A DNA stretch of 64,000 bases from Candidatus Hadarchaeota archaeon (GCA_964621445.1 CAZUNO010000007.1:32001-96000); one strand, 5' to 3'; shown: positions 8,920 through 58,082, numbered from the stretch's first letter. Notes: generated by a model from the sequence alone, not told the origin. Made by a program: numbers and translations.

Positions 8920-9261
8920 TTAACCTATCGCGTCCTCCCCGCGTTCCCCGGTCCTTATCCTTATACATTCCTTGAGGTCGACCACGAAGATCTTTCCGTC
9001 ACCTATCTCTCCGGTTCTAGCACCATCTATTATTGCCTGGATGGTCGGTTCCACAAATTCCTCGTTTACTCCGATTTCTATCCTGACCTTCTTGAGGAGA
9101 TTCACTTCCCGGGTGACCTGTCTGTAGACCTCTTTGTACCCCCGTTGCTGGCCGCACCCAAGGGCATTGGTCACCGTCATCTTGAAAACCTCTGCCTTTG
9201 CCAAAGCCGCCTTTACGTCCGGGAGTTTATGCGGTTGAATTATCGCGGTTACTATCTTCAT
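8920..9261 (-). CDS. glnK: P-II nitrogen regulatory protein
   Basis: [37 protein letters not shown]; directly downstream of amtB. Confidence 0.95.
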
Positions 9262-9272
9262 CTAAACGCCTC

Positions 9273-10595
9273 TCACTCGGCCACGAATATCTGAAATCCA
9301 CTGTAGGATTCCATGCCGTGTTCACCTATATCCAGACCCCTGATTTCCTCCTCCCGGCTGACCCTTAGCCCCATTAAACGGTCTAGCGCCTTGAAGAAGG
9401 CATACATAACCAATCCTACAAAGGCCAACAGTGCCACCACGCCGGTGATCTGGACCGATAGCAGTCCGAAGCCAGCGCCAGATGTAATACCCCTTGTGCT
9501 GTGGAAGAGGCCCACTGCCAGCGTTCCCCAAATGCCGTTCATTCCGTGGACCGGAATGGCACCCACGGGGTCATCGATTCCCCGCCGGTCCAGAAAGGTG
9601 ACCCCGAGAACGGTTACTGGACCCGAAAGGAGGCCTATGACCGCCGAGGAGGAGATGCTTACGAAAGCGCAGGGGGCTGTTATGGCCACAAGTCCACCTA
9701 GTGCTCCGTTCATGGTCATACCTACATCAGGCTTCCCAAGGCGAAACCAGGCTATTACCAGGGAGCCCAAAGCCCCGGTGGCAGCTGCGATATTGGTGTT
9801 CACGGCGACCTTTGCTATGAGGTCCGAGTCCATTCCCGACAGCGAGCTCCCGGGATTGAATCCAAACCACCCGAACCAGAGAATAAACACTCCCAGCGCT
9901 GCCAGTGGTATGTTGTGACCCATTATGACCTTTGCCTTTCCGTCACGGGCGAACTTTCCGATACGTGGTCCCAAAACCAGTGTCCCCATCAGGCCAGCGA
10001 TACCCCCCGTAGCGTGAACCACACTGGACCCTGCAAAGTCCACGAATCCCAGATCCTGAAGCCAGCCACCACCCCATATCCAGTGCCCGACGATGGGATA
10101 GACCAAGGTGCTAATCAACAGGGAGTATGTGATATATCCCGAGAACTTCATTCTCTCCGCCACGGCACCGGAAACTATGGTAGCAGCGGTCCCACAGAAC
10201 ACGGCCTGGAAAAGCCAGAATGCTGGCGTCGGAATTCCGGCCATTTCGGAGGGTAAGTTCGATAGAAAGACACCAGTTGTTCCCATTACCTGGTTTCCAA
10301 GCCCAAACATGATTCCAAAACCAATGACCCAGAACCCGATGGAGGCCATGCAGAAGTCAAGGAGGTTCTTCATGATGATGTTTCCAGCGTTCTTGGCCCG
10401 TGTGAATCCTACCTCCAACATGCCGAAACCGGCCTGCATGAAGAAAACCAGAAAGGCGGCCAGGAGCACCCAGAGGGTGTTTATGCTTCTCATTATCTCG
10501 GTCAGGCCTGGCGTATCTGATAGTGCAAAAACCCCTGGCAGAAAGACCATTAGAATCAGCAGGAGTATTGACGAACTCACAGCTCCGTTGTCCAT
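9273..10595 (-). CDS. amtB: Ammonium transporter
   Basis: FFMQAGFGMLE, SGAVAER, DFAGSSVVH, LWFGWFGFN, DDPVGAIPVH, GLDIGEHG. Confidence 0.97.
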   Translation of the reverse strand: MDNGAVSSSILLLILMVFLPGVFALSDTPGLTEIMRSINTLWVLLAAFLVFFMQAGFGMLEVGFTRAKNAGNIIMKNLLDFCMASIGFWVIGFGIMFGLGNQVMGTTGVFLSNLPSEMAGIPTPAFWLFQAVFCGTAATIVSGAVAERMKFSGYITYSLLISTLVYPIVGHWIWGGGWLQDLGFVDFAGSSVVHATGGIAGLMGTLVLGPRIGKFARDGKAKVIMGHNIPLAALGVFILWFGWFGFNPGSSLSGMDSDLIAKVAVNTNIAAATGALGSLVIAWFRLGKPDVGMTMNGALGGLVAITAPCAFVSISSSAVIGLLSGPVTVLGVTFLDRRGIDDPVGAIPVHGMNGIWGTLAVGLFHSTRGITSGAGFGLLSVQITGVVALLAFVGLVMYAFFKALDRLMGLRVSREEEIRGLDIGEHGMESYSGFQIFVAE

Positions 10596-10654
10596 GGTAA
10601 ATATGGGATCCGGAGCGCATATTAGTCTTCACTAAGGAATACAAGTAACGTAGT

Positions 10655-10687
10655 TTGCTATACGTATTAGTAATAATTATACGTATT
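10655..10687. promoter_or_regulatory. Tandem palindromic operator upstream of amtB-glnK (TATACGTATT x2)
   Basis: Copies at 10659-10668 and 10678-10687, 19 bp apart; same motif upstream of the glutamate synthase operon and glnA. Confidence 0.75.
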
Positions 10688-10734
10688 TATTCAATCGACG
10701 GGATTTGCACTGGTTCCGGGGAAGAAGATGGGCG

Positions 10735-11559
10735 CTAGAAGTAGGTTCTACCCTCGAATGCCAGGGCTGCCGGACCACGAACTGAAGTTCTATCCCCCAG
10801 GATTATGTCAAGTTTGCCCCCGGGCATTTCCACTGTCCATTGGTCATAATCGGGGTTGAGTTCATTTGCCGCCCTGGCTGCTGCCATAGCTCCAGAGCCA
10901 CATGCCTGGGTTTCGCACGCTCCCCTCTCGTGAACCCTCATATTCAACTTGCCAGGTTCATCCATCCGAACGAATTCCGTGTTGATTCCCTGGGGGCTAA
11001 ACTGATCGTGATACTCCATTGCGTGACCAATACCCTCCACATCGATGGATCCCAGATCACCATCAATGAATGTGACTGCATGTGGGTTCCCTACATCTAT
11101 GAGATGGTATATCAGCGCTGTTCCCGCGGCCTCAACCTTCCTGAATCCCTGGTATAGGGGCATGTCATCCATTTCCAGCTCTACTATGGCCTCCAGGTCA
11201 TTCACCATGTCAACGATCTTGGCCCTAACCGTTCCCCCGGCGGTGAGTATGTTGAAAGACTTTTCCTGCCCTTCCCATAACCTGAGATGAAGGGCAAGTG
11301 CGGCGCATCTAAGCCCGTTCACGCAGGTCTCGGCCTCCGACCCGTCGGCGTTAAATATCCTGAACTGGACTCCATGGTCCTCCCTCCTAAGGAATAATAC
11401 ACCATCGGCGCCAATACCCCTGTTTCGATTACACTTTTGCGAGCAAAAGCTGGATTTTCGGTCTTCCTCCACTACCTCGGATCCGGTCTCATCGATAAGC
11501 ACGAAATCGTTTCCCAGTCCATGAAGCTTTAGAAATTCCACTTTTTCCATTTTCACCAT
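10735..11559 (-). CDS. dapF: Diaminopimelate epimerase
   Basis: HGLGNDF, FNADGSEAETCVNGLRC, GNPH, ERGACETQACGSG. Confidence 0.93.
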   Translation of the reverse strand: MVKMEKVEFLKLHGLGNDFVLIDETGSEVVEEDRKSSFCSQKCNRNRGIGADGVLFLRREDHGVQFRIFNADGSEAETCVNGLRCAALALHLRLWEGQEKSFNILTAGGTVRAKIVDMVNDLEAIVELEMDDMPLYQGFRKVEAAGTALIYHLIDVGNPHAVTFIDGDLGSIDVEGIGHAMEYHDQFSPQGINTEFVRMDEPGKLNMRVHERGACETQACGSGAMAAARAANELNPDYDQWTVEMPGGKLDIILGDRTSVRGPAALAFEGRTYF

Positions 11560-12726
11560 CTACAGGGAAAGTTCAAGCATCCTCTCGCATGCCTCTTTGG
11601 TCCTTTCCAGGTCCGGTACAAGCGCGAACCGGAGGAAGTCCTTTCCAGCGTCCGTCGATTGACACAGGGCCTTTCCGGGTACGGTATTCAGGTAAGCTCC
11701 CTCGAGAAGCATCTTGGTGAATTCCAAGGAGTCCATTCCATTGGGCGCTCTAGCCCATATATAGAAGGTCGCGTCCGCATAAACGGACTCCAGACCCATT
11801 TCCTCCAGGGTCCCAACAAGCAAATCCCTCTTCTCCCTGTATTCCCGCCTTAGGCTATCCACATGATCCTCATCTGATAATGCGGCCACGGCCGCATCCT
11901 GGATGAATGTTGCTGCACCCGAATGTGCCTGAGTCTGCACCTTTTTGAAGGGGTCAAGTAGTTCCTTCCTCCCGGCCACAAAAGCTATCCTATAACAGGT
12001 CATGCTTGACCTCTTGGATAACGAGTTAAAGACCAGGGAAACATCCCTTGCACCGGGGATGGAAAACACCGATACCGGTTTCTCATCATAATAGAGCTCG
12101 GAGTATGCCTCATCGGATGCCAGAAGAACGTCGTTTTCCCTACAGAATTCCACGGCGTCCTGGAGGAACTCAACGGGCGCTATCTTGGTGGTGGGATTAT
12201 TCGGGTAGTTGATCCATAGTATCTTTGCCCGTTTACATATCTTGGAAGGTATGCTGGAGAGATCGGGCAGAAAGGAGTTTTCCTCTTCCAGAGGGAGATA
12301 GTAACATCTACCACCCCGGGCCCCGGTTCCGGTCGTGTAGGGAGGATATCCCGGGTCCGGAATCAGGACCACATCATCGGGGTTCACATAGGCCAGAGGT
12401 GTCAAGAATACGGCCTGTTTACAGCCTATAGTTGCCGTGATCTCCGAGTTGGGGTCCAGGGACACCCCAAATCTCCTTTCAAACCAGGTGGCGACCGCGG
12501 ACCTGAATTCAGGGGACCCTTCATAGCTCGGATATCCCGACCGGGCCCTCCTATCCAGTCCGCTCTTACAGGCCTTACGAACGATCATGGGGGTAGGGGA
12601 AGTTGGATCTCCAACTCCAAAATCAATCACGTCCACTCCTTTGCTCTCCAATTCATCCCGGGTCCTGTCAATTTCCGCAAAAGCGTATGGCCGAATCTTG
12701 GTGATGAAGCTACTCGGGGATACCAA
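11560..12726 (-). CDS. dapL: LL-diaminopimelate aminotransferase (class I/II PLP enzyme)
   Basis: PYAFAEID, FGVGDP, NYPNNPT, DEAYSE, SLSK motifs; abuts dapF. Confidence 0.8.
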   Translation of the reverse strand: MVSPSSFITKIRPYAFAEIDRTRDELESKGVDVIDFGVGDPTSPTPMIVRKACKSGLDRRARSGYPSYEGSPEFRSAVATWFERRFGVSLDPNSEITATIGCKQAVFLTPLAYVNPDDVVLIPDPGYPPYTTGTGARGGRCYYLPLEEENSFLPDLSSIPSKICKRAKILWINYPNNPTTKIAPVEFLQDAVEFCRENDVLLASDEAYSELYYDEKPVSVFSIPGARDVSLVFNSLSKRSSMTCYRIAFVAGRKELLDPFKKVQTQAHSGAATFIQDAAVAALSDEDHVDSLRREYREKRDLLVGTLEEMGLESVYADATFYIWARAPNGMDSLEFTKMLLEGAYLNTVPGKALCQSTDAGKDFLRFALVPDLERTKEACERMLELSL

Positions 12727-12738
12727 TAGATCTACAAC

Positions 12739-13524
12739 CTATGCATAGAGTCTAGAGTAGGGCCTCGTTTCCCGGGGTACTACCTTGCAGAACTCGGTGG
12801 GGTTCACTTCCCGTTTCAACTCGAATCTCTTCCTGAAGTCATCGATATGAGTGGTCAGGAAGTCTCTGTCCGCCTTGTCCAAGCTCTTGATCCGGGCACC
12901 CTCCCCTAGCTGCATTTCGTTGATCTTTCCACGTATGTAAATGATTCCGCCGTGCATACCAGTTCCGATGAATCTCATGCGATGTCTCTTGTATCCCAGG
13001 CCCAGAACGATCACCCGGCCTCCAGCCATATACTCCCCCAGAAAATCCTGAGCAGTTCCTCCAATCATCAAGATGGGAAACCTCTCCCCGTGCTCCTTAA
13101 TATGGAGGGCGGCTCTATAACCAGCATCCTCCCGAACCAATATGGAACCGCCTGTGGCCGACATTCCAAGTATATCCCCACATCTCCCCTCGACGATTAT
13201 CTCTCCCTCATGCATGGTATTACCAACCCCGTCCTGAGCATTCCCATGAACAACCAGGATATGTCCATCCATGAAGGACCCGAGATCGTTTCCGGGGGTT
13301 CCCCAGATCTCAATTTTGGTTGGGGGAAGGCCATTAAGCCGGGTTCCTATATACCTCTGCCCATATACCCCTCTGAGAATTATTTTCCTGCTACCCGACC
13401 GGGCTGCGGATAGAATTTCGGTGTTGAGTTCCCTGAATTCGAGCTGTCCGGCTTCGATCTCCGTGTGCTTTGTATCAGCGCTGCAGACGGGTCTCCTTTC
13501 CGGACTGGTGGTGGTTGACATCAT
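12739..13524 (-). CDS. Glutamate synthase, C-terminal GXGXG beta-helix subunit (GltB domain 3)
   Basis: GQRYIG, GNDLGSFMDG, GEYMAGG, GTGMHGG repeats. Confidence 0.9.
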   Translation of the reverse strand: MMSTTTSPERRPVCSADTKHTEIEAGQLEFRELNTEILSAARSGSRKIILRGVYGQRYIGTRLNGLPPTKIEIWGTPGNDLGSFMDGHILVVHGNAQDGVGNTMHEGEIIVEGRCGDILGMSATGGSILVREDAGYRAALHIKEHGERFPILMIGGTAQDFLGEYMAGGRVIVLGLGYKRHRMRFIGTGMHGGIIYIRGKINEMQLGEGARIKSLDKADRDFLTTHIDDFRKRFELKREVNPTEFCKVVPRETRPYSRLYA

Positions 13525-15041
13525 TGACCAGCTCCCCTTATCCCCAGAACGTCAAGCTCCCAGTCCGTTAGGCCGATGCCCCTCAACTGCTCGCGATTTC
13601 CCCGCAAGCTTTCCAGGGCATTGATGCCCATTCCTCCCAGCATTTCCTTGATCTCCAGGGACCAGGCGTGAAGTAGGCGTACCAGTCTTCTGGAAGCGAC
13701 ATCGGGATTAATTCTCTTTGATAGATATGGGTCCGTAGTACATATGCCCCAGTTACATATGCCGGTATAGCACTTCTGGCACAAGGTGCAGCCCATGGCC
13801 ACCAGGGCAGCCGTACCCAGGTACACCGCGTCTGCCCCCAGAGCTATTGCCTTCACAACGTCAGCGCTACAGCGAAAACCACCTGCGGAGATTATTGAGC
13901 ATTCGTTTCTAATCCCCTCGCTTCTCAAACGGGAATCGATTGAGGCCAGTGCCATCTCGATTGGTATGCCCACGTTATCCCGTATGGCCTTGGGAGCGGC
14001 CCCGGTTCCCCCTCTCAGGCCGTCTATCGCTATGACATCAGCTCCAGCCCTTGCTATACCGGAGGCTATGGCCGGTGCATTGTGAACGGCAGCTATCTTG
14101 ACTGAAATGGGCTTCTGGTAATTCGTCGCCTCCTTCAATGCGAATATCAACGTTCTCAGATCCTCGATCGAGTAGATATCATGCTGGGGGGCCGGGGAAA
14201 GTGCATCAGTTCCGGCGGGTATCTTTCTGGTGGATGATATCTCGGTTGAGACCTTTTCTCCTGGAAGGTGCCCACCTATGCCGGGCTTTGCACCCTGGCC
14301 AATCTTTATTTCCACCATAGACGAGTTTGCGAGATATTCAGGCTCGACCCCGAAGCGGCCTGAGGCGCATTGAACTATGGCGTGATCCTTGTATTTTCGT
14401 AATTTCTCGGGAAGTCCACCTTCTCCCGAGTTGAACAATGTCCCTGATTCATTTGCCGCTCGTGCCAGGGATTCCTGGGCCTGTCCGCTGATGGCCCCAA
14501 AGCTCAGGGCCGAGAAGATGAGAGGTGTTTCTATTTCCAGCAGAGGGTCCTCATCGCCAGCATTCCCATCCATCAATATCGCTTTCTTGGGCTTGCGTCC
14601 CAGGAACGTCCTGAGCTCCATGGGCTCTCTGAGGGGGTCGATTGAGGGATTTGTAACTTGGGAGGCGTTTAGGACCATGTGGTCCCAGTAGATCGTCTGG
14701 TCCTTATCGTTACCGCAACCGGCAAGAAGCGCCCCACCCGATTCTGCCTGCCTCTTAATATCCGATATCTTTTCCCGCGTCCAGTTAGAGTTTCGGGTAT
14801 AAGGGTGCTGGTTTTCCGAGATGCTTAAAGCGGAAGTGGGGCAGAGCACCACACATCTCTGGCATCCTGCACACTTAGATTCGTCGCTCAGGATGATGTC
14901 CCTCCCCTGGTCATATGTGTGGACATCGAATCCACACTGTCTTATGCAGACCTCACATCTGATACAGCGATCATCATCCCTGGCGATGCTGAAATTTGGG
15001 AGAAGCTGGGTTTCAAGCAACGACCTCACCCCTATGAACAC
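13521..15041 (-). CDS. Glutamate synthase, FMN-binding subunit with N-terminal 2x[4Fe-4S] (GltB domain 2)
   Basis: Two CxxCxxCxxxC motifs; EIKIGQGAKPGIGGHLPG; SPAPQHDIYSIEDL; CTLCQKCYTGIC [3Fe-4S] motif. Confidence 0.95.
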   Translation of the reverse strand: MFIGVRSLLETQLLPNFSIARDDDRCIRCEVCIRQCGFDVHTYDQGRDIILSDESKCAGCQRCVVLCPTSALSISENQHPYTRNSNWTREKISDIKRQAESGGALLAGCGNDKDQTIYWDHMVLNASQVTNPSIDPLREPMELRTFLGRKPKKAILMDGNAGDEDPLLEIETPLIFSALSFGAISGQAQESLARAANESGTLFNSGEGGLPEKLRKYKDHAIVQCASGRFGVEPEYLANSSMVEIKIGQGAKPGIGGHLPGEKVSTEISSTRKIPAGTDALSPAPQHDIYSIEDLRTLIFALKEATNYQKPISVKIAAVHNAPAIASGIARAGADVIAIDGLRGGTGAAPKAIRDNVGIPIEMALASIDSRLRSEGIRNECSIISAGGFRCSADVVKAIALGADAVYLGTAALVAMGCTLCQKCYTGICNWGICTTDPYLSKRINPDVASRRLVRLLHAWSLEIKEMLGGMGINALESLRGNREQLRGIGLTDWELDVLGIRGAGQ

Positions 15042-16153
15042 TCATATGAAACACCATCCCCAAGGCGACCTATTATGGGAACTCCTCCCTGCGGGGACCA
15101 CGCCCTATCGAGGTCTTGGTCGATCATTCGGAGCGGAGCCTCCTCCGAGGATAGATAGAGCACGTCCCCGGAAATACCCGCGGTCAATGGCCTGAGACGA
15201 ATCCTATCGGTGAGTCCGATCATCTCTCCCTCTCTGGCAATTATTACCGAGAACGGGCCATTTAGTAGGAGTCCACCATAAGTTATTCTCAAGGCCCTGT
15301 AGAGACGCCTTTTGTCGGGTTCCATCCTATCGATGGTATCCCAAAGTGGGGGCGCTAGCACCCTTGCTGCAAGCTCCAGAGGCAGGGCATGTCCCCTTAC
15401 CAAAAGATCCATTGTGTAGGCAATGACCTCGGTGTCAGTGAAGAAGCTGCATCTATAGCCGTGGTCCTCCACGAACCTCTTGTTTGCACCGTAGGATGAG
15501 ATCTCCCCATTATGAACGACTGACCAGTCAAGCATGCTAAACGGGTGCGCACCCCCCCACCAGGCGAGGGTGTTGGTTGGAAATCTTCCATGTGCCAGCC
15601 AGATGTATCCTCTGTAGTCCTGGAGACGGTAGAACCTGGCAAGATCTCCCGGGTACCCGATCCCCTTGAAAACACCCATATTCTTCGCGGCGGAAAATAC
15701 GAAGGCATCCCCAATACCGTGGTTGATCTCCGTCACCTCTTCGGCAACCATTTCCTGTGAATTCGGTTGCCCCTCCTCCGTCCTGAGGAAGTATCGCCAA
15801 AGAATTGGGGCCTTGGCCACCGCGCTCACCTCATCGTCGGTCGGTATCCGTTCCTCGTCCCGGACATCGAAGTTTTCGTATAATCTGGCTTCGGTCAGCT
15901 CCTTTCCTTCCCTGGACTCGTACATGATATGAAACGCGTAGTCGTCGGCATGATCCGGATAAAGACCATATATCGAGAACCCGCCGCCGAGACCATTGGA
16001 CCTCTCCTTCATATTGGATATGGCCCTTATTGTGGATCGGCCATCCAGCAACTTCCCCGACATGTCCATCATTCCGAATATGGAGCAGTTGGATATGACC
16101 TTCGTGTCACCGTAAGGGTTGTTCTTCCTCTCAATATTCAGCAACATTATCAC
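15032..16153 (-). CDS. Glutamate synthase, class II glutamine amidotransferase subunit (GltB domain 1)
   Basis: CSIFG, ERSNGLGGGF, HGRFPTNT, AHPF, HNGEISSY, TDTE, DRIRLRP. Confidence 0.92.
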   Translation of the reverse strand: MIMLLNIERKNNPYGDTKVISNCSIFGMMDMSGKLLDGRSTIRAISNMKERSNGLGGGFSIYGLYPDHADDYAFHIMYESREGKELTEARLYENFDVRDEERIPTDDEVSAVAKAPILWRYFLRTEEGQPNSQEMVAEEVTEINHGIGDAFVFSAAKNMGVFKGIGYPGDLARFYRLQDYRGYIWLAHGRFPTNTLAWWGGAHPFSMLDWSVVHNGEISSYGANKRFVEDHGYRCSFFTDTEVIAYTMDLLVRGHALPLELAARVLAPPLWDTIDRMEPDKRRLYRALRITYGGLLLNGPFSVIIAREGEMIGLTDRIRLRPLTAGISGDVLYLSSEEAPLRMIDQDLDRAWSPQGGVPIIGRLGDGVSYECS

Positions 16154-17411
16154 CTTCCGTTAGGATCTTCCGCCTGCAGGCGGTAGGCAGGTCGACCAGC
16201 GAGAAACCTTCCGCGGTGGGGGGTCTATGGAGATCACTCAGAGGGGTGCCGTTCCTCATCAACTGCAGGTATATTCCAGTATTGTCGATATTGCCGACCC
16301 GTATGAACCCCACCAGTTTGCCGTTCCTGGTAACGAATTTGCTGTAATTTAGGTCCCCTTCCTCACATACCTGGTTCCAATTACCTCCCTCCCTGGCCTC
16401 AGTGATGCCGGCGGAGAGTATTGAAGTTCCGAAAAAATGCATAGAATTCATTGAGGTAGCCCACTGCGAACTAGCTCTCTTTCCTGCCATATTGTATCCT
16501 GCAACCATGCCCTCTACATATGCGGCCGGCCAGAGAGCCAGGGTTCGGTTTTGCCCCTCGATAAAATCAAAGGTCTGGGCACAATCACCGGCAGCGTAAA
16601 TGTGAGGTACATTGGTGCTCATGGACTTGTTCACCATTATTCCCCTATCTACCTGAATCCCGGCATCCTCCGCGAGGTCGGTTCGGGGCCGAACGCCTAT
16701 AGCGACCACCAGTAATTCACAGGAGAGCCGACGTCCATCATCCAAAATCGCCAGGATCCCCTTTCCGCTTGAGCATACACTTTCGAGGGTGTGGCCGGTA
16801 ATCAAATTGAGTCCTCGATCCTTGAAGAGAAGCTGGACCATATTCGATGCCGGTTGGTCCAGGACTGATGATAGTATTCTGGAGGCTAGCTCGACAATAG
16901 TTACCTCCAGTCCGATTTCCAGAAGCGGCTCGGCCAGAGAACACCCTATCAGTCCCCCGCCCAGAATTACCACTTTGGAGATATTCCCACTTTCAATTTT
17001 CTCCCTGATAACCCGGGCATCGGATATACCGGAAAATGTCAGGGCGTTAGACCTCAAACCGGGGATAGGAGGAATGAATGGGGTGCCCCCCGTAGCCAGC
17101 AGGAGGTCATCGAACCCGATCGAGTCCCCATCATCCAATTGAACCTCACGCGAATCGGTCTCCAGTCGAACCGCCTTTTTGCCACCAAGAAATGTGACCT
17201 GGTTCCGTTCATAGAATTCCGCCGGCCGATACCATAGATCCTCCACATTCCTCTTACCGCAAATAATATCCCCAATTGAAGGTCTACTGTAGGGAGGGTT
17301 GTTTTCCTCCGATACCACACAGATATCCTGGCAACAGCCAAGCCTCCTGATGGCCTCTATGGCCCCCACCGAAGCGGCCGAGTTTCCGATTATGATGTTA
17401 TGATAACTCAT
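16131..17411 (-). CDS. FAD/NAD(P)H-dependent oxidoreductase (NirB/Nox-like)
   Basis: IIGNSAA, LLATGG, GGGLIG, YAAGDCA; overlaps its neighbours in the operon. Confidence 0.9.
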   Translation of the reverse strand: MSYHNIIIGNSAASVGAIEAIRRLGCCQDICVVSEENNPPYSRPSIGDIICGKRNVEDLWYRPAEFYERNQVTFLGGKKAVRLETDSREVQLDDGDSIGFDDLLLATGGTPFIPPIPGLRSNALTFSGISDARVIREKIESGNISKVVILGGGLIGCSLAEPLLEIGLEVTIVELASRILSSVLDQPASNMVQLLFKDRGLNLITGHTLESVCSSGKGILAILDDGRRLSCELLVVAIGVRPRTDLAEDAGIQVDRGIMVNKSMSTNVPHIYAAGDCAQTFDFIEGQNRTLALWPAAYVEGMVAGYNMAGKRASSQWATSMNSMHFFGTSILSAGITEAREGGNWNQVCEEGDLNYSKFVTRNGKLVGFIRVGNIDNTGIYLQLMRNGTPLSDLHRPPTAEGFSLVDLPTACRRKILTEGDNVAEY

Positions 17412-17836
17412 GTAGTCTCCTCCAGAGATATCGCTTCGTTAGGGCAATGCTCAACGCAGGCCGGGATTTCCCGATCTTCACACAGATCACATCTGATGGG
17501 GTGATCCTTTCCCTTCCTGACCGCCCCAAATGGACATACCAGAATACAGGTCCAGCACGATCTACACCTGTCATAGTCCAGTTGAATCGAGCCATCGACT
17601 CTTTTCAGAGCCCCTGAGGGACAGGAGTATACACATGCGGGGTCATCGCACTGTCGACATTGCAGTGGAAAGGTGACCGGCATTATTTCGTGGACGGTTA
17701 CCCTTGATTCCGGGCGAGGCTTCTCCAACTTGAAGCAATTAATCAAGTCGTTGGACTTCGAGTGGGCAACGACGCACCAAATCTCGCAGAGGTGGCATCC
17801 GATGCATGCATCCTCGTTAACTGCCAGTCTATTCAA
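17408..17836 (-). CDS. Multi-[4Fe-4S] electron-transfer protein (HydN/DmsB-like)
   Basis: Four Cys clusters: CIGCHLCEIWC, CRQCDDPACVYSCP, CRSCWTCILVCP, CDLC..PACVEHCP; 4 bp ATGA overlap with the flavoprotein gene. Confidence 0.92.
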   Translation of the reverse strand: MNRLAVNEDACIGCHLCEIWCVVAHSKSNDLINCFKLEKPRPESRVTVHEIMPVTFPLQCRQCDDPACVYSCPSGALKRVDGSIQLDYDRCRSCWTCILVCPFGAVRKGKDHPIRCDLCEDREIPACVEHCPNEAISLEETT

Positions 17837-17889
17837 AGGACCACTTCAGGTACGGGGGTATAGTGGTTGTGCATATTATTGGAAAAATA

Positions 17890-17931
17890 TTTACGTATTG
17901 AAGTACGAGTTAGTATTTGAAATACGTATTT
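17890..17931. promoter_or_regulatory. Operator cluster in the divergent promoter between the glutamate synthase operon and the regulator
   Basis: TTTACGTATT 17890-17899, degenerate AGTACGAGTT 17902-17911, perfect AAATACGTATTT 17920-17931. The last overlaps a minus-strand TTTAAATA TATA-like box. Confidence 0.75.
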
Positions 17932-18022
17932 AAAATCTGGTTAAACCAATTCTTAAAAATAGGAAACAAATGGGACTAAATACATAAATACGGAACAGAA
18001 TACTTTCCTAGCGTGAATAAGT

Positions 18023-19057
18023 ATGGATGTTGGGGAAGCGGAATATAGAAAGGTTCAGGTCCTTGGCCGGTCAAGTTATGCAGTAACCCTGCCCAAGGAT
18101 TGGGTGCGTGATAGGAAACTAGATTCCGGATCAGTTGTAGTTGTAACCGTTGATAAGAAGGGAATACTGCATGTCATGCCGGAGGTCATGCACTCGGAGA
18201 AGGAGGAGCCCGCCGAGAAAAAGTTAGATGCAACTGATATCACCACCGGAGGAGCTCTGGCAAGCACGATCAAGGCATGCTATAAGATCGGATACGAGAA
18301 CATCAACATAAGGCATCCAGGCGGGCTTCGCCCTGATTTAATCAGGGAGATACATGAGGCGGTTGATAGTCTATACGGAACGCTGGTGGTAAAGGAATCC
18401 GCCAATGAAACGGTTGTCCACACCTCCATAGACGTCCGTACCTTCACGGTCAGTTCCCTGATCTCCAGAATGGGTTCATTCTTCCTTTACCTATCAGAGG
18501 AGGTCGAGAAGGCTCTCAGGGAGGGCGTTTTGCAGGACCCAACGACGGTTGAGTACCGAGCGAGGGAGGTCGACAAGATATACTCGCTACTGGTAAGACA
18601 ACTAGTACAGGGAGTAAAGAGCCAGCAGGTGGCCTCGAGGGTTGGGCTGGCCGATGTGATTCAATGCCTCGGCTCTAGAATGGTTGCTAAGGCCCTCAAG
18701 GACATGACCAGAAGCATGTTCATGATATCGGGAGTCGCAAATCAGGCATCAAAAGGCAGAAAAGAGGATGTAGAGGAAATAATCCGTTTCATTAGCGAAA
18801 TTAGGGCAATGTACGATAAGGCATATCAGGCCCTCAGGCGCGAAGATGTTGAACGGGCCGCCGAGATACTTGGTGAGGAGGACTCCTTCCATAATAAACT
18901 GGTGGATTTCGAGAGATCTCTTCCCAAGGAGGAGGACCAGAGGTCCGTGATTTCGGCCGAGGTTTCCTTTGTATGGGAGCTACAGAACGTGCTCAGATCG
19001 ATAATGATACTTGCAGAAATCGCGGTTAACCGGACCGTTGAACGTGAGGAGATGTAG
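18023..19057 (+). CDS. AbrB/SpoVT DNA-binding domain plus tandem PhoU domain transcriptional regulator
   Basis: RKVQVLGRSSYAVTLPKDWV AbrB-type N-terminus; ..YKIGYENI..; PhoU-like helical repeats (REVDKIY). Confidence 0.88.
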   Translation: MDVGEAEYRKVQVLGRSSYAVTLPKDWVRDRKLDSGSVVVVTVDKKGILHVMPEVMHSEKEEPAEKKLDATDITTGGALASTIKACYKIGYENINIRHPGGLRPDLIREIHEAVDSLYGTLVVKESANETVVHTSIDVRTFTVSSLISRMGSFFLYLSEEVEKALREGVLQDPTTVEYRAREVDKIYSLLVRQLVQGVKSQQVASRVGLADVIQCLGSRMVAKALKDMTRSMFMISGVANQASKGRKEDVEEIIRFISEIRAMYDKAYQALRREDVERAAEILGEEDSFHNKLVDFERSLPKEEDQRSVISAEVSFVWELQNVLRSIMILAEIAVNRTVEREEM

Positions 19058-19058
19058 A

Positions 19059-20138
19059 CTACCCCAGCGCTTCATTCAATGCTTCTAACAGGATCCCGTT
19101 CTGGTCCGGAGTACCGATTGTAACCCTTATGAACTGACCCTCCAGCCCCTGAACCCCCTGAAGGTCTCTTACCAATACTCCTCGATTAGCGAGTTCGTTG
19201 ACCAGGTTTGGGATTCGGGGATCGACCCTGATCATCAAGAAATTCGCTTCCGAGGGCAGGGGAAATAACCCTTCCATCCTAGATACCTCGGAAAATACCT
19301 CCAGGCGATTCTTCCTGATTCTCTCCCATATCATGGAGTAATACGGTGAGCAGGACAGAGCCGATATTGCGGCCGAAGCTGAAAGTTTACTCACGCTAAA
19401 GGGGTTCCGGGACTTGCGCATCTTGGAGATCAAGGATTCATGACCGACCGCGTATCCAACACGAAGTCCTGCCAGGCCAAAGGACTTGGACATCGATCTG
19501 GCTATAATGAGATTCGGGTGTTGATCAAGGATGTCAAGTGCAGAGCAACCGGAGAATTCGGCGTACGCCTCGTCGAGGAACACAATTCCATCGGAGTTCT
19601 CGACTATCTCTATCAATTCATGCCGCTCTATTGCCCTTCCAGTTGGATTATTGGGCGAGCAGAGAAAAGTGATTTTTGATCTCTCTCCTCCGGAAATTAG
19701 GTCACCCGACCTAACGCTATATTCCCTGTCTTCCGTGCTCGCGAAGAATATCTGGGCCTCCCTGAGCATGGACATCAGGATGTACAGGCTGTAGGAGGGA
19801 ACCGGAATTATTATCCTGTCAAAAGGTTCCACAAAGACCTTGCAGACGATATCGATGATCTCGGTGCAGCCGCCGGCCACAGCTATATTTTCCTTTGGGA
19901 AACCGATGTGTTTGCCTATCGCGGTCCTCAGATGAACATAATCAGGGTGAGGATAGCGATTTATTCTAGGTATTTCTTCGAAAATTGCCTGTTGGACCGC
20001 CGGAGCTGGAGGGTAGGGACTCTCATTTGATGCCAAGTTGACTACATGTTCGGGATCAAGACCGAATAGGCGATGGACATCCCCAGGGAACAGGCCAGGG
20101 TCGTAGGGCTCTATGTAATCAATTACATCTCTATGCAT
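19059..20138 (-). CDS. hisC: Histidinol-phosphate aminotransferase
   Basis: LASNESP, CSPNNPTG, DEAYAEF, RSMSKSFGLAGLRVGY, RVTIG. Confidence 0.88.
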   Translation of the reverse strand: MHRDVIDYIEPYDPGLFPGDVHRLFGLDPEHVVNLASNESPYPPAPAVQQAIFEEIPRINRYPHPDYVHLRTAIGKHIGFPKENIAVAGGCTEIIDIVCKVFVEPFDRIIIPVPSYSLYILMSMLREAQIFFASTEDREYSVRSGDLISGGERSKITFLCSPNNPTGRAIERHELIEIVENSDGIVFLDEAYAEFSGCSALDILDQHPNLIIARSMSKSFGLAGLRVGYAVGHESLISKMRKSRNPFSVSKLSASAAISALSCSPYYSMIWERIRKNRLEVFSEVSRMEGLFPLPSEANFLMIRVDPRIPNLVNELANRGVLVRDLQGVQGLEGQFIRVTIGTPDQNGILLEALNEALG

Positions 20139-20142
20139 GTAT

Positions 20143-20460
20143 CTAGAGCCCTTCCATCATATTTCCAAGTCTTTCAAGGCGCTTGCTGACCTCATCTATG
20201 GTTGTGTCCTTGCCGGGCTTCTCGGCAACTCCGGCCTGGGACCAGAACAGCCTGGCGATTATCAGCATTAGCTTGCCCGCGTAACCAGGTGCGTGAGGGA
20301 GGATATCAGCCGCAAGATCTCCAAATTCCTCAAGGACATCATCATCCATCTCTTTGACCATGGTGCTGGCCTTTCCCAGAAGAGAGATTGCATTTCCCAG
20401 AACCTTTTCCCTCTTCACATATGCTTTGGCAGCATCGCTCGTTACTCTATGTACACCCAT
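20143..20460 (-). CDS. Small helical hypothetical protein between glnA and hisC
   Basis: 105 aa ORF that fills the gap (9 bp and 4 bp spacers), with a GAGGTGA ribosome-binding site on the minus strand. Confidence 0.75.
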   Translation of the reverse strand: MGVHRVTSDAAKAYVKREKVLGNAISLLGKASTMVKEMDDDVLEEFGDLAADILPHAPGYAGKLMLIIARLFWSQAGVAEKPGKDTTIDEVSKRLERLGNMMEGL

Positions 20461-20469
20461 TCTATCACC

Positions 20470-21933
20470 TCAGTAATCCATATACTTCATTATCTCCCAC
20501 GGCGTTACGTAGAGACAATATTGATTCCACTCATCGATCTTGAGACCAACAAATTGTTCGAATATGTGATCCCCGAGAAGGTCCAAGAGGACTTGATCCG
20601 TGCTCAGATGATCGATGGCGTCTCTCAAGGTGGTCGGTAGCTCTCCCACGCCGTGTTCCTCCTTCTCAGCTGCGGACAGTCCATACATGTCCGTACGTAG
20701 GGGGTCTCCAGGCTCTATCTTGTTCTTAATTCCGTCCAGCCCGGCCGCCAGCATTGCCCCGAAAGCAACGTACGGGTTGCAGGTTGGGTCTGCGGCCCTG
20801 TACTCACAACGTATGGCTCCCGGGCTGCTAAAGTATAGAGGTACCCTGATGAGGGCGCTCCTGTTCCTGGGGCTCCAGCTGATGTTAATTGGGGCCTCGA
20901 ACCCCGGGACCAATCTCTTGTAGCTATTCACGGTCGGGCAGCAGAGAGCGGTAAGGGCCTTTGAGTGTTCAATTAGCCCGCCGATGTAGTATCTGGCCGT
21001 CTGACTCAGGTTGTAATCCTCGTCAGGATCGTAGAAGACATTCTCGCCCTTGAAGGGCTCACCTTTCCAGAGGCTCTGGTGGGTATGCATTCCGCTGGCA
21101 TTATCCAGGTAAATTGGCTTGGGCATGAAGGTGGAGACCCATCCATACCTATCGGCCACGTTCTTGGCAGCGAATTTGTAGGTGTAGAAGGCGTCCCCGC
21201 ATTCGACGAGCGTCTTAGCTTTGTAATTAAGTTCGACCTGACCGGAGGTCGCAACCTCGTGGTGATGGTACTCTATATTGACATCCATGCTTTCGAGATA
21301 TGAGGCCAGTTCGTTTCTATAATCATTAGTAGTATCTTCGGGAGGCGCACGAAAGTATGCCTCCTTGGGTCTCAGAGGAACCTTCCCGGTCGTCGTCTCG
21401 GGTGACCGGGGGACCACCCTGGGGGGACCCCAGGAATCTCCCTTTCCACCATTTGGGGATACGAAGGGATCGTATACCAGGTTCGTTGGATCTATGCTTT
21501 CAAAGACAAAGAACTCAATTTCTGGGCCAAAAACCGCAGAATAGCCCATCGATTCGGCCATCTCCACCGCCTTTCTACCAACGTAACCACGTGGGTCAAC
21601 CTCGGATGGATTTCCATCGCTGCTTTCACCAAAGGCCTCGAATATGTCCCCGAAGACCATTACCGAGCGTTGAACTGGTTCCTCGATCCAGGGAATGTAC
21701 CTTAAACTGGATGTATCAGGTACCCAAACCATATCGCTACTTTCTATGGACTTAAATCCGCGAATCGATGAGCCATCGAATCCTACACCTTCCGTGGCAT
21801 CTCCTTTTATGAACTCCCTAACCGGTATGGTGAAGCTCTGGAGTATACCCCTCAGATCGCTAAACATGCACATGACGTTCTTGGCCTGAGAGTTCTCTAT
21901 TAGCTCGAGGAAGTTGTCCTTCTCCATACACAT
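20470..21933 (-). CDS. glnA: Glutamine synthetase type I
   Basis: FDGSSI, GPEIEFF, HHHEVA, TFMPKP, SGMHTHQSLW, NSYKRLVPGFEAP, NRSALIRVP. Confidence 0.97.
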   Translation of the reverse strand: MCMEKDNFLELIENSQAKNVMCMFSDLRGILQSFTIPVREFIKGDATEGVGFDGSSIRGFKSIESSDMVWVPDTSSLRYIPWIEEPVQRSVMVFGDIFEAFGESSDGNPSEVDPRGYVGRKAVEMAESMGYSAVFGPEIEFFVFESIDPTNLVYDPFVSPNGGKGDSWGPPRVVPRSPETTTGKVPLRPKEAYFRAPPEDTTNDYRNELASYLESMDVNIEYHHHEVATSGQVELNYKAKTLVECGDAFYTYKFAAKNVADRYGWVSTFMPKPIYLDNASGMHTHQSLWKGEPFKGENVFYDPDEDYNLSQTARYYIGGLIEHSKALTALCCPTVNSYKRLVPGFEAPINISWSPRNRSALIRVPLYFSSPGAIRCEYRAADPTCNPYVAFGAMLAAGLDGIKNKIEPGDPLRTDMYGLSAAEKEEHGVGELPTTLRDAIDHLSTDQVLLDLLGDHIFEQFVGLKIDEWNQYCLYVTPWEIMKYMDY

Positions 21934-21979
21934 CGCCAGGTACTGTTACAATAGATCTAAGAAAAGTATTGACCAATGA

Positions 21980-22013
21980 GAATACGTATTCATACAACGA
22001 ATACGTATAGCAA
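21980..22013. promoter_or_regulatory. Tandem palindromic operator upstream of glnA
   Basis: GAATACGTATTC 21980-21991 and AATACGTATA 22000-22009, 19 bp apart. 22000-22013 is the exact reverse complement of 10655-10668. Confidence 0.78.
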
Positions 22014-22116
22014 TTCCAGGTTATTATCCCTAATCCCTGTGGTTGGTTGCACGATAATGTGGAAATCATACAAGATTTTTATCGAATAGGATTCGTCATA
22101 TGGACGGGAAAGGGCC

Positions 22117-23358
22117 TTGAGGGCGAAGACACCGATCGTTTTGATGTGCATTATCCTTTTTTTATCATCACAGTGCCAGGGACAAGGGGATCAGAGAAAG
22201 ATAGAGGTCCTTGTATTGAGCAAGGCAAACGTCGTTCAGACCCTGTCGGCCTGGTTCAATGCGGAGCCTTCAATAGATTTCTCTATCGTGGTCACCCGGG
22301 TTTACGGCGAGGTGACGAGGGAAGATATCAGGAGGTACATGAGGCTCTATTTCCCCAGGTCCTACCAAGCCCTGAATTCCTATGATTTCTACTACCTTGC
22401 CCAGACCGATATGACATTCCTTTCCCCCAAGCAGGAGAAATGGATCTATGATGCTATTACTGGGGGATCGAAGGGCGGTGTCAATACCAGGAGCGTCATG
22501 AGCACCCATGACTGGTTCAATGTACCCTGGGCGGATAGCGTGGTGTCAGAGGCTTTTCCGAATAACGCGGATACAGTTGTGTCCGATGAAGCGCATCAGC
22601 AGGCACCTCCCGGTCCTCTGGTGATCAAGGACGACCCTGAATTACCGGCGATAATGAAACCATATAAGGAGCCGCTGGAAGGGATCTTTACCAACCTGGA
22701 AGGCCTAAACACCATACCCAAGCCCGGGTCTGTCATCCTTTCCTACGTCAGGAATAACCAGGGGCAAGGACACCCCATTCCGGGACAGGTTGCCCACATA
22801 TTTTACTGGAAATGGAACAATTCAATCACCTTCACCTTTCAGGATCAACCCGTCCATCTTTTCTGGAATCAACCAGGCTCCACACTGCACAACCCCTACA
22901 CCATTGATATAACGGCAAATGTGATCTGGTTCGCAACCGGCCGTGAGCTTCCAGATGACCCCTTAAGGGTTCACGATTTCAGGCGGGACCTCTATGACTT
23001 TAACATCGGGAAGTCCCTGCTGGTGAGCCTTCTGGACTTTGCCGAGAAGTTCGGGGCCAATCCCGCTCCGATGTATCGGGATCTTGACGAGGTTCAGGGG
23101 TTGAGAGCTCAAGCCAAGGATCATTACCTGGAGGGAAGATTCGATCATGCCTACCAGTCAATGAAGGAAGCAAACAGTGCCCTGGAGTCCCTGGAGGAAA
23201 AGGCAGCCAATCTGAAGGACCGTGCCCTGCTCTGGGTATATATCGTGGAGTGGCTCAGCATCACCGGGGCCCTTCTGGTAGCCGGGTTCGTGGTGTGGAC
23301 CCTGATGGTTAGAAGAACCCTGTACAGGGAGGTATCGGCAACCCGAACCTTTGATTAG
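22117..23358 (+). CDS. Uncharacterised secreted, C-terminally membrane-anchored protein (paralogue 3 of 3)
   Basis: Signal peptide; RLYFPR; LPDDPLRV; RALLWVYIVEW transmembrane segment; RRTLYREV tail. Confidence 0.8.
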   Translation: MRAKTPIVLMCIILFLSSQCQGQGDQRKIEVLVLSKANVVQTLSAWFNAEPSIDFSIVVTRVYGEVTREDIRRYMRLYFPRSYQALNSYDFYYLAQTDMTFLSPKQEKWIYDAITGGSKGGVNTRSVMSTHDWFNVPWADSVVSEAFPNNADTVVSDEAHQQAPPGPLVIKDDPELPAIMKPYKEPLEGIFTNLEGLNTIPKPGSVILSYVRNNQGQGHPIPGQVAHIFYWKWNNSITFTFQDQPVHLFWNQPGSTLHNPYTIDITANVIWFATGRELPDDPLRVHDFRRDLYDFNIGKSLLVSLLDFAEKFGANPAPMYRDLDEVQGLRAQAKDHYLEGRFDHAYQSMKEANSALESLEEKAANLKDRALLWVYIVEWLSITGALLVAGFVVWTLMVRRTLYREVSATRTFD

Positions 23359-31881: not shown

Positions 31882-32979
31882 GTGAACACAGGAGAAGTTC
31901 CAATGAAGATGCGGGAAAGAGTAATGGAAGCCCTTACCTGGGGTGACCCCGATTATGTTCCCTGGATACCCAAGAGGAACCACACGCCGCGCGATTCCAA
32001 ATCAATTGATCGATTATTGGAAATTGGAATGGGCCGGTCCTACCCCGTTTCGGTTACCAAAGTTTCACGTCCAAACGTAGAGACCGAGACCAAGATCAAT
32101 GGAGACTACAAGAAGACGATCTATAGGACCCCGGTGGGGGAGATATTCGAAAAAAGGAGAATAAACCTGCCCACCGATGAGGGAGAAAGGGGCGATTCCT
32201 GGATAGTAGATCCGGTGATCAAAGGACCCGATGACTACAAGGTGCTGGAGTTCATGACCGAGGACGAGGTTGTGGAGCCAAGCTACGAAGGTTTGGAGGA
32301 GAAAAAGGAGGAAGTCTCCGATCATGGCGTGCTTCAGACGGGAACGGGATACACGCCCTTCATGCAGCTAGTGGTAAGATACATGGGCTTCAAGAGGGTA
32401 GTGATCGAGCTTAGGCGACGCAGAGAGATGGTTGAGGGCCTGATGGAGCTCATGGGGGAGGTTATGAGGAAGCGGGTTGAGGTCGTGGCCGACTCACCGG
32501 TGAGAATTGTAAAAATAGGCGACAATATAGACGGCCTGATGATCAATCCCAGGCTTTATGAGAGCTACTGCATTCCTTACCATCAGGAGTTCTCCGACAT
32601 GCTTCATGGAGGCGGCAAGATAGCCATGTCCCATATGGATGGTAGGCTGAAAATCATAAAGGATTTGATTCCAGAAACCGGGCTGGATGTCGTACAGGCC
32701 TTCACCCCTCCTCCAATGGGAGACCTAAGCATCGCGGAGGCCCGCCAGAGCTGGGGTCAGGACCTGGCGATTTGGGCGAATATTCCCGAGGTTATCTTCT
32801 ACAAAAAGGATCCAGATATAGAGGAATACATTCACGGGCTCTTGAAGGAGGCCGCTCCCGGCAGGGGTCTGGTATTCGGAATTACGGAGACCGTGCCCCC
32901 TAAGGAGAGGGACAGGGGGCTAGAAGCGATAACCAGGGCCGTAATGAAGTATGGAAAGTTACCCGTTCAGGGAGGATGA
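31882..32979 (+). CDS. URO-D/MtaA-like family protein
   Basis: MRERVMEAL..PDYVPW, YRTPVG, GDNIDG, SHMDG, FTPPPMGD. Confidence 0.85.
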   Translation: MNTGEVPMKMRERVMEALTWGDPDYVPWIPKRNHTPRDSKSIDRLLEIGMGRSYPVSVTKVSRPNVETETKINGDYKKTIYRTPVGEIFEKRRINLPTDEGERGDSWIVDPVIKGPDDYKVLEFMTEDEVVEPSYEGLEEKKEEVSDHGVLQTGTGYTPFMQLVVRYMGFKRVVIELRRRREMVEGLMELMGEVMRKRVEVVADSPVRIVKIGDNIDGLMINPRLYESYCIPYHQEFSDMLHGGGKIAMSHMDGRLKIIKDLIPETGLDVVQAFTPPPMGDLSIAEARQSWGQDLAIWANIPEVIFYKKDPDIEEYIHGLLKEAAPGRGLVFGITETVPPKERDRGLEAITRAVMKYGKLPVQGG

Positions 32980-32983
32980 TGTT

Positions 32984-33469
32984 TTGGTTTCTGTGAGAAT
33001 AAATCTTGGAGGAGGGCGCTATTTCTCTGCGGCGAAGGATATCTGGGAGGCCGATCGAGCCTATATCGGGGGGCTTTGGGGTTGCCTGGACATGGCCACC
33101 ACGGACGTACTAACCACCTCCGATGATATTGGGGGAACCGATGATATGGCACTCTACCAGACGATCCGGGTCGGTGAGGAGTTTAGATATAGATTCGATA
33201 TGGACCCCGGTAGTTACAGAGTGGGGATCCTGTTTGCCGAGATATTCTGGGAATCCAGCGATGCTGAGGCTGAAGATGTCTACATAAATGGCCAGAAATT
33301 CATCGAGAATTACAATATTTACGATGAGGCCGGGCACGATGTGGCGGTTAAGAAGGAGTTTGAGGTAAGTAGCGATGATGGAGTGCTTGAGGTAAGGTTC
33401 GTTGGAAAGTCCATTCCCATGCACTCGGGTGCCAGAGCGTGTGGGATCGAGGTAGTATCCTTAGATTAG
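32984..33469 (+). CDS. Stand-alone malectin-domain protein
   Basis: RINLGG, LYQTIR, FAEIFW, DVYING, ACGIEV. TTG start at 32984 follows GGAGG. Confidence 0.85.
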   Translation: MVSVRINLGGGRYFSAAKDIWEADRAYIGGLWGCLDMATTDVLTTSDDIGGTDDMALYQTIRVGEEFRYRFDMDPGSYRVGILFAEIFWESSDAEAEDVYINGQKFIENYNIYDEAGHDVAVKKEFEVSSDDGVLEVRFVGKSIPMHSGARACGIEVVSLD

Positions 33470-34698: not shown

Positions 34699-34900
34699 TC
34701 CACCTCGGAACCACTCTATTATGATTTATTCACCCTTTTTCCTCTAGGATAGGGAAGTCATTTTGAGTTAAAGGAGTAACCGATCTTCATTGGAAGGAGT
34801 GTATTCCAAGGAGAGACGCGCACGGGAAAAGATCCATTCCCCACTCTGAATTGGAGTTCTGTAAAAATTGACGAGGTATCGATGGGCGGAGGCCCTTTAC

Positions 34901-41497: not shown

Positions 41498-41618
41498 GAG
41501 AAATAGCATGATAATTGGCGCGAGAACTGTGGCCCATTCGGAAAGGGACCATTCAATCACCCCCTGGGTAGATCATGCAACCCCTCTAGGGTGGCAACCA
41601 CATCTCCAACTCCCCAGG

Positions 41619-57911: not shown

Positions 57912-58082
57912 GGTTTTACTTCCTGAATAATAGAGGTGGTAATTTTCGGATTTGGCCTGGCTAATAAAGGTAACCCGCGGAAATTGGGGCGGGGTTTTCA
58001 AGTGTTTAATGGGTAGGGTCAAGGAATAGAGTTAAGAAAAACCTGGACAGGGGAGCTGTGCACCGAATATGTTTCATTCGGA

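Follow-up and report, generated by a model that had tools for sequence, protein, structure and literature searches.

The 64-kb stretch analyzed here (G000:C7:32001-96000, from now on referred to as the window) belongs to the archaeal genome G000 of a Candidatus Hadarchaeota archaeon, which comprises 3.21 Mb in 89 contigs with a GC content of 51.7% and is an estimated 96% complete. The window contains three sets of ammonium-assimilation genes, specifically, amtB-glnK, the glutamine synthetase (GS) gene glnA and an operon encoding a split glutamate synthase (GOGAT) together with DapL and DapF (glt operon). In gene order, the glt operon encodes a ferredoxin-like protein, an FAD/NAD oxidoreductase, GATase_2, Glu_synthase FMN and GXGXG components, a dapL-like aminotransferase and dapF. 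Pfam matches, which for the glt operon comprise Glu_synthase/GXGXG/GATase_2, DAP_epimerase and class I/II aminotransferase (dapL-like), agree with the identities given to all of these nitrogen genes in the initial annotation. Each of the three promoters carries copies of a short palindrome, described here by its 8-mer core ATACGTAT and the 10-mer AATACGTATT. This motif points to a nitrogen control system so far undescribed, in an uncultured archaeon without the usual archaeal nitrogen repressor.

All sites of the motif listed in the initial annotation are present where it placed them and can be read directly in the sequence (Table 1). Both copies of TATACGTATT upstream of amtB differ from AATACGTATT at one position and contain a perfect ATACGTAT core. 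Site centres are spaced 19 bp apart in the amtB and glnA promoters and 12 and 19 bp apart in the glt promoter. The 14-mer TTGCTATACGTATT (10655-10668, + strand) upstream of amtB is, as had been claimed, the exact reverse complement of positions 21999-22012 upstream of glnA. In the direction of the gene, the proximal glt site reads ATACGTAA and is located directly upstream of the TATA-like AAATATTTTT (17882-17891), and the degenerate amtB site TAACGTAG abuts a weak TATA-like TTGTATT (10638-10644). Together with a GTAT half-site at 21992-21995, the distal glnA site also forms an ATAC-N9-GTAT arrangement.

Table 1 Motif sites, predicted glnA box and genes of the window.
Feature	Position	Strand	Remarks
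amtB promoter, distal site TATACGTATT	10678-10687 (core 10679..10686)		centre 10682/10683
amtB promoter, second site TATACGTATT	10659-10668 (core 10660..10667)		centre 10663/4; 19 bp from distal site
amtB promoter, degenerate ACGT-centred site TAACGTAG	10646-10653		centre 10649/50; 14 bp from second site
glt promoter, proximal site TTTACGTATT	17890-17899 (core 17891..17898)		2 mismatches to AATACGTATT; core TTACGTAT; centre 17894/5
glt promoter, degenerate middle site GTACGAGT	17903-17910		centre 17906/7; 12 bp from proximal, 19 bp from distal site
glt promoter, distal site, exact AATACGTATT	17921-17930 (core 17922..17929)		core ATACGTAT; centre 17925/6
glnA promoter, proximal site, exact AATACGTATT	21981-21990 (core 21982..21989)		core ATACGTAT; centre 21985/6
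glnA promoter, distal site AATACGTATA	22000-22009 (core 22001..22008)		core ATACGTAT; centre 22004/5; 19 bp from proximal site
glnA TATA-like box AATACTTTT (predicted)	21962-21970	-	from glnA alignment and TATA peak
amtB	9273-10595	-	Pfam Ammonium_transp
glnK	8920-9261	-	Pfam P-II
glt operon (split glutamate synthase-dapLF)	17836 to 10735	-	Pfam
glnA	20470-21933	-	Pfam Gln-synt_C/N
P0001, conserved 105-aa protein	20143-20460	-	directly downstream of glnA
hisC-like aminotransferase	19059-20138	-	after P0001
P0002, AbrB/MazE-like + alpha/beta + PhoU	18023-19057	+	divergent from glt operon
P0003	22117-23358	+	flanks glnA
P0004	7562-8830	-	flanks glnK
Giant surface-protein gene	34868-41497	+	2209 aa
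Giant surface-protein gene	41478-43478	+	666 aa
Third giant open reading frame	43515-58022	-	~4835 aa

The motif is concentrated in these promoters to an extent that excludes chance as the source of its clustering. At one mismatch or fewer the window holds seven matches, compared with 0.99 expected, and none of 100 shuffles reached seven; five of the seven are located in the three nitrogen promoters and the remaining two (27420 and 34373) inside open reading frames (ORFs). Genome-wide, ATACGTAT is found 34 times, with 25 copies in ORFs and nine in 413,097 non-coding bases, and five of these nine lie in the amtB, glt and glnA promoters. Pairs of the search pattern WTACGTAW spaced 8-40 bp apart occur exactly three times in 3.21 Mb, once in each of the amtB-glnK, glt-dapLF and glnA promoters. 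The genome scan thus bears out the proposal that the motif is specific to ammonium-assimilation promoters. Control 8-mers of the same composition, compared by counts alone, have 33-80 copies genome-wide and 2-9 in non-coding DNA. With regard to the density of the tetramers ATAC and GTAT in non-coding 60-bp windows, only 10 of 36,301 of which contain five or more, the glnA promoter ranks joint first with six, a value shared with one unrelated locus, and that of amtB belongs to the top five.

G000 encodes one Amt, one PII, one type-I GS, one glt operon and one glutamate dehydrogenase, as well as a distant GS-like gene. The promoter of the glutamate dehydrogenase gene gdhA contains no TACGTA and a single ATAC/GTAT in 200 bp, and that of the GS-like gene neither TACGTA nor any ATAC/GTAT in 200 bp. 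Because Amt, PII, type-I GS and glt all carry sites while gdhA and the GS-like gene do not, the motif marks the high-affinity route (Amt, GS, GOGAT) and, as far as can be recognised, nothing else. A position weight matrix scan of G000 combined with annotation of neighbouring genes did not add any gene of recognisable nitrogen function among the best non-training matches. This distribution would match the pattern expected of a nitrogen-limitation regulon.

The host phylum is represented in the reference set by five species genomes only (G000-G004, 2-4 Mb), and promoters were compared with those of G001, G002, G003, G004 and a metagenome contig, L081. The latter is nearer to G000 than the species genomes, with 86% identity for GlnA and 79% for P0002. 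The best relatives of GlnA are otherwise found in metagenome-assembled genomes with 80-82% identity labelled Hadarchaeota or Thermococci; NCBI labels are inconsistent between these two names across the relatives. The gene order glt operon, P0002, hisC, P0001, glnA is conserved in G001, G003 and L081, and the parts present in G002 follow the same order. A fragment of amtB is found in G002 and a copy in G004, while none was found in G001 or G003. Relatives align to GlnA from residue 3 onward only, so translation of glnA probably begins with the ATG at 21927.

According to the alignments with four relatives, no other block of the orthologous glnA and glt promoters is as well conserved as the motif core. 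In the glt promoter, ATACGTAAA forms an unbroken invariant block in all four aligned sequences (G000, L081, G001 and G003), compared with a mean column identity of 59%, and is directly followed by a TATA-like A/T run. G002 has TTACGTTT in its place, preceded by three GTAT and one GTATATAC. The distal glt position, exactly 14 bp from the proximal site, is taken by ATAC-N9-GTAT in L081, G001 and G003 and by ATACGTAT-N5-ATAC in G000. Upstream of glnA, the distal site reads ATACGTAT in G000, L081 and G003, ATACGTAC in G001 and ATAGGTAT in G002, followed 5 bp on by GTAT (GTAC in G003), such that all 5 genomes share an invariant ATA.GTA and the GTA downstream of it; conserved TTCTCATTGG and AAYACTTTTCC lie further downstream. 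The proximal glnA site is found in G000 only, and the amtB promoter of G004 contains no TACGTA. Across the 11 promoters read, every one contains 2-6 ATAC/GTAT tetramers per 110 bp, compared with about 0.9 expected from 4-mer frequency, and ATAC-N9-GTAT is found in six of the ten glnA and glt promoters. Contigs from four metagenome runs include a relative at roughly 90-95% identity that spans the promoters; none of its 40 best-supported differences, beside which there are 844 others, falls within them, too small a share to bear on site conservation. The DNA runs that contain window positions 17300-22300 are microbial-mat and hypersaline-lake metagenomes; no RNA runs containing this region are listed.

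Conservation of the core in the family supports the motif of the initial annotation and modifies its description as a pair of sites 19 bp apart. Because relatives keep one full 8-mer together with extra GTAT/ATAC half-sites, often as ATAC-N9-GTAT, the conserved unit is an ATAC/GTAT half-site array with at least one abutting palindrome per promoter, and the exact 19-bp pairing is peculiar to G000.

The motif has the general features of an operator, being over-represented, palindromic, confined to promoters of functionally linked genes and conserved in orthologous promoters. The operators of characterized nitrogen regulators follow the consensus GGAA-N6-TTCC for NrpR, TGTNA-N7-TNACA for GlnR/TnrA and GTA-N8-TAC for NtcA. 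GGAA-N6-TTCC has two matches in the 64 kb (18114 and 33404, 2.3 expected), both in ORFs and none in the three promoters; the single TGTNA-N7-TNACA match in the window (36199) is located inside an ORF, with none in the glnA and amtB promoters; and GTA-N8-TAC is found in the amtB promoter only (10650-10663) and is absent from those of glt and glnA. NrpR itself (PF01995) has no match in G000, with M. jannaschii and M. acetivorans as positive controls. Both the boxes and the missing gene therefore agree with the earlier statement that the motif is neither an NrpR nor a GlnR/TnrA operator. That it is undescribed is likewise in line with a literature search, which revealed no description of the motif; among the matches listed for literature containing the 8-mer ATACGTAT, none concerns a prokaryotic regulator by title. 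No MerR domain was detected in the 37 ORFs of the window that were scanned, a search that did not extend to other parts of the genome. ArgR (PF01316) has no match in G000, with positive controls in 9 of 14 genomes, and the idea of an ARG box, which the TGAAT-ACGT-ATTC of the proximal glnA site had suggested, was rejected as G000 has no ArgR gene. AsnC-type genes of G000 comprise six matches, two of them full-length, none within the window.

Among the closest analogs is the NrpR regulon of methanogens (PMC2723118). There too, the nitrogen promoters of an archaeon, including those of glnA and amtB-glnK, share one palindromic, often paired operator; however, G000 has no NrpR gene, the sequence differs and the sites are located upstream of the predicted TATA box instead of over the transcription start. 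NtcA of cyanobacteria is a bacterial CRP-family activator with a box at about -41. Its nitrogen promoters also carry GTA/TAC half-sites upstream of the core promoter in an activation geometry, but the half-site order is inverted in G000 (TAC...GTA), and GTA-N8-TAC is present in one of the three promoters; the NtcA protein was not sought. The met-boxes of MetJ (AGACGTCT repeats) and the operators of NikR (GTATGA-N16-TCATAC) are bound by ribbon-helix-helix proteins. They resemble the G000 sites in being very short ACGT-centred palindromes in multiple copies, in their GTAT-containing half-sites and in binding a multimer with two DNA-binding heads on sites about two turns apart, and differ from them in sequence, spacing and physiological target. 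Ptr2 and other Lrp-type activators use archaeal upstream activating sites, two adjacent palindromic sites just upstream of the transcription factor B recognition element (BRE) and the TATA box in promoters with weak TATA boxes. Lrp boxes are, however, 13-15 bp long with AT-rich centres, whereas the G000 sites are CG-centred and no Lrp gene is linked to them.

We consider it likely that one sequence-specific, lineage-specific nitrogen transcription factor binds the ATACGTAT elements. Such a factor would co-ordinate Amt-GlnK, glutamine synthetase and glutamate synthase together with DapL/DapF in an archaeal phylum that is rare, uncultured and without NrpR. The protein would read (A/T)ATAC half-sites, which either abut to form palindromes (ATAC|GTAT) or stand apart as ATAC-N9-GTAT, a stretch of about 50 bp containing 3-6 of them.

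P0002 is the only one of the 37 window ORFs scanned that contains a DNA-binding domain. Its gene and the glt operon diverge from a shared intergenic region, the one that holds the glt sites. Pfam detects PF04014 (28.3 bits, cut-off 24.7) and PF01895 (27.8 bits, cut-off 23.5), and in the predicted model an AbrB/MazE-like head is combined with a beta-alpha-beta-alpha-beta-beta domain at residues 65-136 and with the complete six-helix bundle of PhoU. The mean predicted local distance difference test score (pLDDT) is 75.9, with the head poorly modelled as a monomer, and the fold matches the PhoU structures 4q25_B and 1t72 with template modelling (TM) scores of 0.75-0.79 normalised to the target. 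In G000, G001, G002, G003 and L081 alike, P0002 is divergent from glt, and no other DNA-binding gene is retained in the cluster. Orthologues of P0002 constitute a closed group of 15 clusters at 55-79% identity, the next relatives having 28%, and the head motif GRSS.AVTLPK.WV is invariant across the aligned orthologues. G004, whose amtB promoter is without the motif, also has no P0002 orthologue. The promoter of P0002 itself contains conserved ATAC repeats, and G003 has ATACGTAA near the gene start.

In AbrB/SpoVT/MazE regulators, swapped-hairpin heads are assembled from two subunits, and a tetramer makes contact with two segments of DNA. P0002 shares their N-terminal domain and differs in the addition of the alpha/beta domain and the full PhoU six-helix bundle. 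Its swapped-hairpin AbrB head would likewise form on dimerisation, and two dimers would occupy the paired sites. Based on these features P0002 is the best candidate for the regulator of the motif, albeit a tentative one. The wider proposal that P0002 is the master nitrogen regulator of a phylum without NrpR, recognizing ATAC half-sites via its swapped-hairpin head, activating from just upstream of BRE/TATA and receiving the nitrogen signal via the PhoU bundle or the alpha/beta domain, is rather unlikely to hold in full.

The operators could also be genuine and bound by a regulator encoded elsewhere, such as an Lrp/AsnC, MarR, TrmB or other winged-helix dimer, with P0002 as a mere neighbour; we rate this as quite possible, if somewhat short of an even chance. 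The ATAC-N9-GTAT arrangement of the glnA and glt promoters resembles a 17-bp dimer operator, the two full-length AsnC-type genes of G000 would provide candidates, and Lrp-type proteins are reported to control glnA in other archaea (PMC3584215). On the other hand, none of the three promoters has a gene of this kind nearby, the AT-rich centres of Lrp boxes contrast with the CG centre here, and P0002 is the only DNA-binding gene retained in the cluster in all five genomes.

Promoter geometry bears on the direction of control. TATA-like hexamers in 1,278 upstream regions of G000 peak 20-50 bp before start codons, and in glnA the predicted TATA-like box is preceded by the conserved TTCTCATTGG (21972-21981). 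With AAATATTTTT as the predicted glt box, the glt site centres are located 8, 20 and 39 bp upstream of the box centre, which corresponds to about -34, -46 and -65 from the predicted transcription start. The glnA site centres lie 19.5 and 38.5 bp upstream of the predicted box centre, and those of amtB 8.5, 22.5 and 41.5 bp upstream if the weak TTGTATT serves as box. Archaeal activators usually bind upstream of BRE/TATA, while archaeal repressors usually bind over the TATA box or the start. The two strong sites of each promoter would thus be located upstream of BRE/TATA, with only the third site overlapping the BRE position. Since this is the usual place of an activator, the suggestion in the initial annotation that the factor is probably a repressor is unsupported; the geometry fits activation at least as well, and the sole hint of occlusion comes from the third, weaker or BRE-overlapping site of glt and amtB. 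We give activation an even chance. A multimer bound upstream of TATA would touch TFB/TBP, the two strong upstream sites of the nitrogen-responsive factor would help to recruit the basal machinery, and the BRE-overlapping third site in glt and amtB would allow repression at high occupancy.

Classical repression, in which a multimer on the paired sites extends over BRE/TATA, or reaches it by looping, and keeps TFB/TBP off under nitrogen sufficiency, is possible but less likely than not. It would account for the family-conserved ATACGTAA of glt, which abuts or overlaps the predicted BRE/TATA, and for the degenerate amtB site at the same place; NrpR represses, and AbrB/MazE-type proteins mostly repress. 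The perfect amtB and glnA sites and the conserved glnA site would, however, be located 20-40 bp upstream of the predicted TATA without overlapping TATA or start, and glnA has no BRE-overlapping site at all. It is very improbable that the motif is instead a core promoter signal, specifically a variant BRE/TATA read by an alternative TFB/TBP with no dedicated regulator: the proximal glt site does overlap GTAAAT, a BRE-like purine/A-rich stretch directly upstream of the TATA-like box, but most sites are found 52-87 bp upstream of start codons, compared with the TATA-like peak at -50 to -20, and the motif is palindromic with a CG centre and has two or three copies per promoter. An origin in chance, AT-rich composition or a restriction-modification palindrome without regulatory role is negligibly probable, since clusters are confined to the three nitrogen promoters, shuffles fail to reproduce them and the core is conserved in the promoters of relatives, even though restriction systems target short palindromes such as TACGTA and single ATACGTAT copies are scattered through the genome, mostly in ORFs.

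Several points weigh against a dedicated nitrogen factor of this kind and against P0002 in that role. Four further non-coding copies of ATACGTAT (C8:92618, C15:25913, C27:3795 and C27:11204) adjoin genes without an evident nitrogen role. The 19-bp pairing and the presence of several full sites are not conserved in the relatives, which number only five related genomes or contigs and are not independent, and the motif allows two readings, 8-mer and ATAC-N9-GTAT. The TATA boxes are predictions and that of amtB is weak; an alternative amtB box, TAATAT (10619-10624), would change the site distances to 28, 42 and 61 bp. The case for P0002 is circumstantial, as its support comes from synteny and the PhoU domain has no known link to nitrogen sensing. 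G000 further encodes four other AbrB-PhoU paralogues and 18 AbrB-like matches, and no shared palindrome was seen upstream of the four paralogues. A literature search found no described operator or DNA target for archaeal AbrB-PhoU proteins, and the passages on AbrB, PhoU and archaea in PMC6316755 contain no operator data.

Nitrogen control in archaea is understood mainly via NrpR in methanogens, and many archaeal lineages are without NrpR. The arrangement described here represents a small testable regulon, with three promoters, one motif and one candidate protein, from a phylum with five reference species genomes. Nitrogen-promoter operators as such are known; as far as we can tell, the motif, its half-site grammar, the lineage and the probable class of regulator are new within the literature and families tested. 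Should the AbrB-PhoU candidate prove correct, it would provide the first function and the first operator for a widespread uncharacterized archaeal AbrB-PhoU family.

One further intergenic region of G000, C8:92581-92640 (locus L071, about 2582-2641), combines a perfect ATACGTAT with four GTAT/ATAC half-sites. This stretch, which ranks in the top five non-coding windows by density and is flanked by genes without an assigned function, is a possible fourth target.

In G001, G002 and G003 (loci L027, L029 and L026, respectively) the gene divergent from glnA encodes a carbon-nitrogen hydrolase of the nitrilase/amidase family, and the conserved site of the glnA region may also serve this ammonia-releasing enzyme; in G000 and L081 the same place is taken by a gene of the P0003 family. 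More distant archaea (L003, L005, L006, L007, L008, L010 and L019) have another repeat upstream of glnA, of the TTCATAA / ATGAA-N-TTCTCA type, the TTCTCA part of which lies next to the TATA box and is common to TTCTCATTGG of the family of G000. We take these repeats to resemble Lrp/FL11 boxes.

P0001, a protein of 105 aa without Pfam or NCBIfam match, is encoded at the same place after glnA in 19 of 24 glnA loci fetched. Carriers include Hydrothermarchaeota, ANME-1, Archaeoglobales, Bathyarchaeia and others, with 50-73% identity. Its strongly conserved parts are the N-terminus MGVHR.TS.AA..Y..RE and a PGYAGK...ARLFW motif. P0001 is likely a conserved glutamine synthetase partner.

P0003 and P0004, which flank glnA and glnK, belong to one hugely expanded family without a Pfam match at E<=0.001, the members of which are ~400 aa long and carry a signal peptide as well as a C-terminal anchor. 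Across 46 contigs the family is found at 132 distinct places, which add up to about 149 kb or 4.7% of G000. A link between the motif and these neighbouring genes was considered and rejected, as with 132 family places adjacency is expected by chance.

Elsewhere in the window, two giant surface-protein genes encode FG-GAP, cohesin, dockerin and PKD domains and are adjoined by a third giant ORF. Malectin-domain, sulfatase and several URO-D-like genes are located beside them, in a region that includes 32951-34698 (+). This gene set suggests a polysaccharide-degrading lifestyle.

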